Assembly (NCBI GenBank): GCA_965227245.1
Contig: OZ245728.1
Location: forward strand, 3,306,946-3,370,945
Origin: Rhodospirillales bacterium
GTDB taxonomy: Bacteria > Pseudomonadota > Alphaproteobacteria > Rhodospirillales > Casp-alpha2
DNA length: 64,000 bases
Direction: 5' to 3'
Of this stretch, positions 42,694-43,530 are shown piece by piece. Within the stretch, counting starts at the first letter, position 1. Each line of letters starts with the position of its first letter. The translations under genes and the position numbers were made by a program. The notes below the pieces were generated by a model. That model made no database searches. It was not told the origin of the DNA and worked only from the letters and a program-made list of their open reading frames with translations.

Positions 42694-43530
42694 TCAAGTC
42701 TCTTTTTCAGCTTTTGCACTGTCCAGTTCGGCCCGGAGATGCTTGATTTCCCGGGTCAGGGTCGTCAGGTCCTCTTTGACGTCGGCCAACTCGGCCTTGA
42801 TGATCGACCGGGTCTCGTTCTCGCTTCTCTCGTATGAATAATTCTGCTGGATCAGCTGCATGCTGTCGACCAGCACTGCCGTAAACAGGTTGAGAATGGC
42901 AAATGCGGTCATCAACATATACGGGATGAACAACAGCACGGAATACGGATGCGTTTCCATCACCGGACGCACCACTTCGGCGGCCCATCCTTCAAGAGTC
43001 ATCAACTGGAACAGTGTCAGCATCGAACGCCCGATGGACCCGAACAGTTCCGGATAATCCACACCGTACAAGTGCGTGACGATGACCGACGATATATAGG
43101 AAATGATCAGCAGGAGTGCGACGATGGAGCCGATCTGCGGCAGCGAGCGAATCATCGCCGCGACGACATGGCGCATCCGCGGGACCAGTGAGATTACATG
43201 CAGGACCCGCAGAATCCGGAGCGCCCTGAGCGCCGAGAATGCGTTCCCGGACGGCAGGAACGAAACCGAAATGATGATGACGTCGAAGATGTTCCAGGCT
43301 TCACTGAAGAAGCGACGGCCGCGGGCAAACAGCCGCGCCGATACCTCGATCACAAAAATATACGGGATTTCATCATTGATGCGCCCGATCCACGAACCGT
43401 ACGTGGACATGATTTCGTCAGACGTTTCAAGCCCGAGGGTCAGGGCATTGACGAACAGCAGAATCACAATGAATCGTTGCGATATTGGATGATCAACGAG
43501 ATATCCAACCTTCTCGCGAATACCGTTCAT
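42694..43530 (-). CDS. Single-domain voltage-gated cation channel (BacNav/NaChBac family ion transporter)
   Basis: Six TM segments, WNIFD in S3, S4 LRALRILRVLH, LFQLMTLEGW pore motif, NLFTAVLV S6, C-terminal coiled coil. Confidence 0.93.
   Translation of the reverse strand: MNGIREKVGYLVDHPISQRFIVILLFVNALTLGLETSDEIMSTYGSWIGRINDEIPYIFVIEVSARLFARGRRFFSEAWNIFDVIIISVSFLPSGNAFSALRALRILRVLHVISLVPRMRHVVAAMIRSLPQIGSIVALLLIISYISSVIVTHLYGVDYPELFGSIGRSMLTLFQLMTLEGWAAEVVRPVMETHPYSVLLFIPYMLMTAFAILNLFTAVLVDSMQLIQQNYSYERSENETRSIIKAELADVKEDLTTLTREIKHLRAELDSAKAEKET

Follow-up and report, generated by a model that had tools for sequence, protein, structure and literature searches.

RESULTS

A BacNav-family gene with histidine at the fourth gating-charge position

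The DNA analyzed here is a stretch of 64,000 nucleotides from a Rhodospirillales bacterium (GenBank assembly GCA_965227245.1, contig OZ245728.1, positions 3,306,946 to 3,370,945), referred to below as the window. On its minus strand, it carries a gene for a voltage-gated channel of the bacterial sodium channel (BacNav) family whose voltage-sensing segment, S4, has arginine at the first three gating-charge positions (R1 to R3) and histidine, His111, at the fourth (R4). Sequence comparisons suggest that this histidine is maintained by selection, and published physiology of R4 suggests that it retunes channel activation. The gene and its S4 segment comprise the following features:

42694–43530, minus strand: coding sequence of the BacNav-family channel, 278 amino acids (open reading frame and translation; voltage sensor S1-S4, pore S5-P-S6, long C-terminal helix)
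43171–43230, minus strand: S4 segment LRALRILRVLHVISLVPRMR, residues 101 to 120; its amino acids are invariant across 13 genomes despite synonymous turnover at every codon
43225–43227, 43216–43218, and 43207–43209, minus strand: R1 (R102), R2 (R105), and R3 (R108), all Arg
43198–43200, minus strand: His111 codon, CAT, at the R4 gating-charge position, by gap-free alignment to R4 of NavMs and NavAb
43195–43197, minus strand: Val112 (R4+1); most Arg-bearing relatives have Leu here, and both His lineages have Val or Ile

The protein matches the Pfam family Ion_trans (PF00520) at 4.6e-39 over residues 15 to 230, and HMMER aligned its residues 6 to 260 to NavMs of Magnetococcus marinus (5hvx; 5.6e-57) and NavAb of Arcobacter butzleri (3rvy; 5e-54); it has the single six-helix Ion_trans domain, the size (about 250 to 300 amino acids), and the full-length homology to solved channels that are typical of BacNavs. 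An AlphaFold2 model with a mean predicted local distance difference test score (pLDDT) of 89.3 contains the expected BacNav helices, from the S1-S4 sensor and the S4-S5 linker through the S5-P1-P2-S6 pore to the C-terminal helix, and the top 50 Foldseek matches to this model were all NavAb, CavAb, or NavMs (E, about 1e-15; target template-modeling score, up to 0.84). Basic residues occupy every third position of S4, and the S2 phenylalanine and the inner acidic cluster formed by an S2 glutamate and an S3 aspartate are in place. Two hallmarks of the family are missing: arginine at R4, which about 99% of members have and which is not a criterion of homology, is replaced by His111, and the Na+-selective filter TLESW(S/A)(M/S) is replaced by TLEGWAA. 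Since membership rests on homology and fold, we class the gene, as judged from its sequence, as a variant member of the BacNav family that departs from it in these two hallmarks.

NavAb and NavMs resemble the window channel in being single six-transmembrane subunits of about 270 amino acids with the same predicted fold and a long C-terminal helix, and their S4 segments align to it without gaps, with R1 to R3, the S2 phenylalanine, the inner acidic Glu/Asp pair, and the S1 asparagine conserved; NavAb N49 corresponds to N52 of the window channel. They differ from it at R4, in the filter (TLESWSM), in the NavMs pair R119-E229, which is His-Tyr here, in the hydrophobic constriction (Ile and Val, here Leu and Ile), and in S2, where the window channel has a proline. 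Identity to the two channels is 33 to 38%, and the window clade occupies a long branch of its own.

The initial annotation had read the S4 string and a histidine codon at 43198 to 43200 from the sequence and had equated this histidine with R4 of NavAb. Translation of the minus-strand open reading frame bore out the string and the codon, and the register is right as well: the HMMER alignment runs through S4 without a gap, with rvlhvis of the query facing rvmrlvs of NavMs (5hvx), such that His111 lies opposite R4, and the NavAb entries align in the same way. A comparison of S4 columns between clade and outgroup revealed no compensating extra in-register charge elsewhere in the segment; R118 is invariant in the clade and is out of register, and R120 is present in 91% of outgroups.

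Conservation of His111

Homologue counts in this and the following section refer to the best 120 to 150 matches listed per search, of about 5,000 BacNav homologues. A search of 5.8 billion proteins, for which 120 homologues were listed, delimited one group of 71 proteins with 65 to 100% identity to the window channel, all other listed matches having at most 50%. Histidine occupies R4 in every close-group protein that covers S4 (70 of 70), within the string LR(V/I)LHV(I/V)S, and arginine occupies it in every outgroup protein among the matches listed. One homologue, with 79% identity to the window channel, carries the name Thalassospiraceae bacterium LMO-JJ14. In a library clustered at 50% identity, the whole histidine group collapsed into one representative (404 bits), the next match scoring 235 bits. 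The R4 column in 99 diverse single-domain representatives at this level of clustering holds Arg 95 times, Lys once, His 3 times, and a gap twice; the three histidines belong to the query, the query's own representative, and a third protein, P0187, to which we return below. In a set of 139 outgroup sequences, R4 is arginine in about 99%.

At the DNA level, the histidine-bearing gene was found in 12 species-level genomes labeled as Rhodospirillales metagenome-assembled genomes (MAGs), in addition to the window. Of these 13 genomes, 9 encode His111 by CAT and 4 by CAC, every other S4 codon likewise shows synonymous turnover, and no amino acid change is seen at R1 to R3 or at H111. For the gene as a whole, the median pairwise ratio of nonsynonymous to synonymous divergence (dN/dS) is 0.11, with a dS of about 1.3. 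This pattern indicates that His111 is held by purifying selection. The initial annotation had allowed for a private variant or a read error; together with a decaying pseudogene, these explanations are rejected as vanishingly improbable, since the same S4 occurs in 70 proteins and in 13 independently assembled genomes, the reading frame is intact, the dN/dS is low, and the fold is confidently modeled.

A second histidine lineage

In a tree of 126 proteins, the window clade, found only in Rhodospirillales, was monophyletic (Shimodaira-Hasegawa approximate likelihood ratio test [SH-aLRT] support of 99) on a long stem of 0.47; its sister, P0123 (support of 96), has arginine at R4 and the filter TLEDWAG. 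P0187 sits in a different, well-supported clade. A search seeded with this protein gave, among the matches listed, two further histidine-bearing proteins, P0281 (68% identity) and P0282 (55%), against 117 relatives that all have arginine at R4 (117/117), the named ones coming from Hyphobacterium, Maricaulis, and Glycocaulis. The three histidine proteins are metagenomic and are mutually 55 to 68% identical. When the S4 columns were removed, the tree still required two Arg/His changes, with each histidine group monophyletic (support of 99 and 100), and an approximately unbiased (AU) test, for which the groups were named after the first tree had been seen, rejected a single histidine clade (p = 0.025). 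These trees indicate that histidine was acquired at R4 at least twice independently.

The S4 string of the second lineage is RVMR(V/L)FH(I/V)MS, and one of its members has a very different filter, TGDDWT.

The residue that follows R4 differs together with it. In the two sets of Arg-bearing relatives, R4+1 is Leu in 115 of 139 and in 116 of 117 proteins, and it is Val or Ile in all members of both histidine lineages; the change from Leu to Val or Ile is a candidate co-adaptation to the histidine. The second lineage lacks the other markers of the main clade (L25, I87, P56, N52, H121, Q132, H153, and several positions in the pore and in S6), and for this reason a role of L25, P56, I87, H121, Q132, and H153 as obligatory co-adaptations is unsupported.

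These data bear on whether the substitution has any role at all. If R4 were of minor importance in this subfamily, a tolerated polar histidine might have become fixed in a founder with no part in tuning the response to voltage or pH; the clade is narrow (one bacterial family), so part of its invariance reflects shared ancestry, and in NavAb, R4 does not cross the hydrophobic constriction and its replacement by cysteine (R4C) leaves a channel that still gates and inactivates. Yet neither reversion nor replacement has occurred in 70 proteins down to 65% identity, at a synonymous divergence (dS of 1.3) near saturation and with both histidine codons in use. The retention of arginine in about 99% of other family members argues that the position is not free to vary, the second lineage arose independently and shows the same replacement of Leu by Val or Ile next to R4, and the shift of +43 mV in NavAb R4C argues that the position matters energetically. 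On balance, we consider a near-neutral substitution rather unlikely, although it retains some weight.

Charge-transfer center and intracellular contacts

The remainder of the sensor and its intracellular surroundings include these features:

43282–43356, minus strand: charge-transfer center, retained, with F59 (43354–43356), E62 (43345–43347), R66 (43333–43335), and D83 (43282–43284); F59, E62, and D83 are NavAb F56, E59, and D80 (PMC13095418)
43456–43458, minus strand: Leu25, where NavAb has the constriction residue I22; 95% of outgroups have Ile here, and the second His lineage does not share the Leu
43363–43365, minus strand: Pro56 in S2, located three residues ahead of F59 and specific to the clade (0% of outgroups)
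43168–43170, minus strand: His121, a second clade-specific histidine, at the start of the S4-S5 linker and equivalent to NavMs R119; 97% of clade proteins and about 1% of outgroups have His here
42838–42840, minus strand: Tyr231, equivalent to NavMs E229, the salt bridge partner of R119; Tyr in 100% of the clade

N28, F59, E62, and D83, like R102, R105, and R108, are invariant in clade and outgroup alike; R66 is invariant in the clade, about half of the outgroups having Lys in its place, and E/D35 is retained. A loss of the partners of R4 is rejected, since E62, D83, and F59 are all invariant. At the constriction, the main clade has, besides Leu25, Ile in place of Val at the NavAb V84 position (I87). 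A break of S2 at Pro56 is not seen; helix 38-76 of the AlphaFold2 model is continuous through this residue.

On the intracellular side, the NavMs register of H121 is fixed by W79, the equivalent of NavMs W77. The R119-E229 pair of NavMs is an open-state salt bridge of the interaction motif (PMC5460950); R119 is not universal, with Arg there in 28% of outgroups. H121 and Y231 appear, from these alignments, to remodel a second intracellular contact of the open state between an arginine and an acidic residue.

Selectivity filter

The filter was read from the sequence and compared with those of CavMr and of NavAb S178G/M181A:

42979–42999, minus strand: selectivity filter TLEGWAA, residues 178 to 184

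Glycine at filter position 4 (G181) is shared with CavMr of Meiothermus ruber, a native prokaryotic Ca2+ channel with the filter TLEGWVD, in which Gly4 and Val6 are needed for Ca2+ selectivity and the V6T mutation lowers the permeability ratio PCa/PNa from 218 to 40 (PMC7041947). Whereas CavMr has Val6, the window channel has Ala183 and Ala184 at positions 6 and 7; of the features of CavMr and the ancestor-like BacNavs (AnclNav), Gly4 is present, and Val6 and a polar or acidic residue at position 7 are absent. A CavMr-type protein in our tree (P0098; TLEGWVD) falls outside the window clade and has arginine at R4, in a tree whose deep nodes are unresolved and which contains no named CavMr or NavPp sequence. 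Given Ala6/Ala7 and this placement, an identity as a CavMr-type Ca2+ channel is unsupported. The engineered filter nearest to TLEGWAA is that of NavAb S178G/M181A (TLEGWSA), set in a canonical background, for which a PCa/PNa of 0.47 and a PK/PNa below 0.05 have been reported (PMC12919392).

Three other loci were seen to carry two BacNav-like units of S4 plus filter each, about 850 to 870 nt apart on one strand and with the filters TLEGWPDIA and TLEGWPDVA: L044 (positions 651 and 1521; Azonexus MAG), L047 (5754 and 6603), and L048 (1664 and 2513), the latter two being Alphaproteobacteria MAGs. These paired units are either tandem genes or a two-domain channel.

A canonical paralogue and a conserved neighborhood

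The genome from which the window derives (one contig, 4.26 Mb) has three Ion_trans genes: the histidine channel, a canonical BacNav gene (L001) located 51 kb from it, with arginine at all of R1 to R4 and the filter TLESWSM, and a Kv-type channel gene (TIGYGD). Of 96 genomes from the same GTDB family (order Rhodospirillales), 16 have the histidine type at an identity of at least 66%: 14 from the window's genus, which is represented by 23 genomes, and one from each of two further genera. Because the canonical paralogue co-occurs in 14 of the 16 genomes, typically 43 to 54 kb away, and several complete congeners carry the canonical gene only, the histidine channel is an accessory, specialised paralogue and not the only voltage-gated channel of the cell.

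The surroundings of the gene include the following features:

42166–42582, minus strand: TerB-like open reading frame, 138 amino acids, 111 nt downstream of the channel gene and co-directional with it; Pfam TerB (PF05099), 8.1e-8; in 12 of 12 full clade loci
43670–43697, minus strand: match to a sigma-70-like promoter, located about 140 nt before the ATG of the channel gene; 9 of 12 matches, which is weak evidence
43888–43963, plus strand: tRNA-Thr(TGT), identified by Rfam, in the 940-nt spacer between the channel gene and the giant adhesin gene
40986–41070, minus strand: tRNA-Tyr(GTA), upstream of rlmB

All 12 full-length loci keep the same gene order: a divergent gene for a giant adhesin, the channel gene, the TerB-like reading frame, and a convergent rlmB. 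A Shine-Dalgarno-like motif, GAGGGAAG, stands just before the channel ATG, and an Rfam scan of the 940-nt upstream spacer for regulatory RNAs gave the tRNA-Thr only. No terminator-like site was found between the channel gene and the TerB-like reading frame, and the latter is possibly an operon partner of the channel. An orthologue of it was not found in five congeners that lack the histidine channel. A TerB-like paralogue with 35% identity (L061:1420–1863, minus strand) lies 31 nt downstream of an MscS-family gene (L061:1894–3231, minus strand; PF00924, 2.9e-16), and this pair is about 2.2 kb from the canonical BacNav gene. Two of the three TerB-like copies in the genome follow ion channel genes, and it is therefore possible that the protein is a small channel-associated partner.

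In Rhodospirillaceae bacterium UBA4468 (L032:945–1590), the match covers only residues 1 to 218 of the channel, and no TerB-like gene precedes rlmB; this short copy is either a deletion or an assembly artifact.

The TerB family is linked to metal stress, and the conservation of this neighbor gene would fit a regulatory metal site in the channel, at which a transition metal of the cytoplasm (e.g., Zn2+) is coordinated by His111 and either E62/D83 or His121 and locks or biases S4; the channel would then be modulated by metal and not by pH. A histidine beside two carboxylates is a typical Zn2+-binding arrangement, and the clade has three specific histidines, H111, H121, and H153. In the proton channel Hv1, Zn2+ bound by histidine and acidic residues holds S4 down (PMC13095418). 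However, H121 and H153 are absent from the second histidine lineage, one shared site is unlikely given that a distance of 10 residues separates H111 from H121 and that S5 has H153 at its outer end, and the TerB link is weak context. We therefore regard a metal site as quite improbable.

DISCUSSION

Our results point to a working, specialised BacNav paralogue in which R1 to R3 are followed by a selected histidine at R4 that would retune activation, His111 itself probably being partly titratable; judged from sequence and from the literature on related channels, we put the probability of this reading at roughly 55%. In NavAb at rest, R2 to R4 lie below the hydrophobic constriction (I22, F56, V84), and in the activated state only R1 to R3 lie above it; R4 does not cross the constriction, because it is below it in both solved states (PMC13095418). 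Replacing R4 of NavAb with cysteine leaves a functional channel that retains late slow inactivation and whose Va is shifted from −97.8 to −55.1 mV (+43 mV), from which the authors concluded that interactions of R4 stabilize the activated state (Gamal El-Din et al. 2013; PMC3753604). Like the window channel, this mutant has lost the fixed positive charge at exactly this S4 position of a BacNav; it differs in that its cysteine is engineered, is not titratable near neutral pH, and does not form the same hydrogen bond to the acidic cluster, and in that it lacks the Val112 co-substitution. By analogy with NavAb, S4 would be kept in its activated position by an ion pair that R4 forms with the acidic residues on the intracellular side, E59/D80 in NavAb and E62/D83 in the window channel. 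A neutral His111 should, given such a role and the R4C shift, weaken this stabilization, and the window paralogue would then have an activation range different from, and probably more positive than, that of its canonical partner. Retuned activation is likely and is the best-supported reading of the histidine at R4.

Since the site faces the intracellular vestibule beside two carboxylates, His111 is probably partly titratable by cytoplasmic pH, and it is plausible that activation is sensitive to cytoplasmic pH through this residue. Acidification of the cytoplasm would protonate His111, restore an R4-like ion pair, and favor opening. More tentatively, we speculate that the clade contains a natural sensor gated by both voltage and cytoplasmic pH, in which His111 and His121 stand in for two arginines as charges operated by protons, E62/D83 raising the pKa of His111; this wider proposal is possible but doubtful at present. 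A drop in cytoplasmic pH would convert the sensor, weak while it has three charges, into its complete form with four and would open a pore permeable to Na+ and Ca2+, so that internal pH would be coupled to cation entry, in a sense opposite to that of the alkaline-activated Nav of alkaliphilic Bacillus. In these bacteria, high external pH activates the BacNav (PMC4225499), whereas the mechanism proposed for the window clade would act from the inside. A variant in which depolarization also gates a proton path through the sensor is less likely still.

The initial annotation had named a proton leak alongside a pH-tuned sensor, an interpretation that our analysis supports in part. A leak would liken the channel to the proton-conducting S4-histidine sensors of the Shaker R362H/R371H type or the omega-current channelopathy type. 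On depolarization, His111 would have to bridge the inner and outer water-filled crevices and conduct or carry protons as R371H of Shaker does, which would make the sensor itself a voltage-gated proton path. The Shaker histidine scan of Starace and Bezanilla (2001) supplies the conceptual basis for a pH-titratable charge and for proton conduction at a deep S4 position: proton transport is seen with R365H, R368H, and R371H, the last of which becomes a proton pore when the membrane is depolarized (PMC2233663; also PMC2229527). The cross-link of NaChBac R4C to the outer-cluster residue D60C suggests that R4 reaches above the constriction in deep activated states (PMC3753604, PMC7059764), and the main clade has substitutions at two positions of the constriction, L25 replacing Ile and I87 replacing Val. 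Several considerations nevertheless speak against such a pathway. R4 of NavAb is below the constriction whether the sensor is resting or activated (PMC13095418), the retained R3 would seal the pore from above in the activated state, and histidine at the deeper Shaker positions K374 and R377 shows no titration (PMC2233663). By its position relative to the constriction in the activated state, R4 of BacNavs resembles Shaker K374 more than R371 (PMC13095418, PMC2233663), and the Shaker channels are engineered mutants of a Kv channel with longer S4 travel. The gating-pore currents reported for NaChBac and NavAb arise from substitutions at R1 to R3, and a literature search for gating-pore data on NaChBac R4 returned R1 to R3 mutants only. 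The constriction changes are not common to the second histidine lineage, and a standing leak would be costly for a cell that depends on its proton motive force, yet the residue is strictly conserved. A proton pore or shuttle through the sensor, and with it a leak, is thus unlikely.

Some points weigh against a sensor that is retuned and partly titratable at R4. Both the sign and the magnitude given for the gating shift are extrapolations from a cysteine mutant of a channel that is 35% identical. If the pKa of His111 were unperturbed, near 6, hardly any of it would be charged at cytoplasmic pH, and the proposed pH dependence would not hold. The NaChBac R4C-D60C cross-link implies that R4 travels further out than the NavAb crystals show, which weakens the argument against a proton pathway. 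Most other clade changes (L25, P56, I87, N52, Q132, and H121) are absent from the second histidine lineage; they may be unrelated to the histidine at R4, or they may compensate for it so that gating is normal. The naming of the AU test groups after inspection of the first tree belongs here as well.

The nearest natural parallel to the retuned sensor that we propose is found in Kv7.1 (KCNQ1), which also has a natural, conserved histidine in the charge register of S4, located where the charge ladder ends on the inner side; Kv7.1 is a K+ channel of eukaryotes and has this histidine at the fifth position (H5) and a natural glutamine at R3 (PMC2888051). Unlike that of the window clade, the histidine of Kv7.1 is not a lineage-specific departure from a position that is arginine in about 99% of relatives. 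Full-text literature searches, whose coverage left out most subscription journals, returned no description of a natural histidine at an S4 charge position of a bacterial channel.

For voltage sensing in Na+ and Ca2+ channels, BacNavs serve as the principal structural model. To our knowledge, work on the role of R4, a charge that does not pass the constriction, has until now relied on engineered mutants only. Evolution appears to have replaced R4 with histidine at least twice and to have kept the change, and in one of these lineages the histidine paralogue stands beside a canonical four-arginine channel in the same genome and therefore comes with a matched natural control. The clade thus offers a natural test case for how the R4 charge tunes channel opening. 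If the histidine is titratable, these channels would be the first natural bacterial S4-based sensors with a pH-dependent gating charge, and they would provide small, easily expressed channels for structural work on protonation-dependent gating; if it is not, the clade would still show that a BacNav sensor with three arginines is viable and selected.

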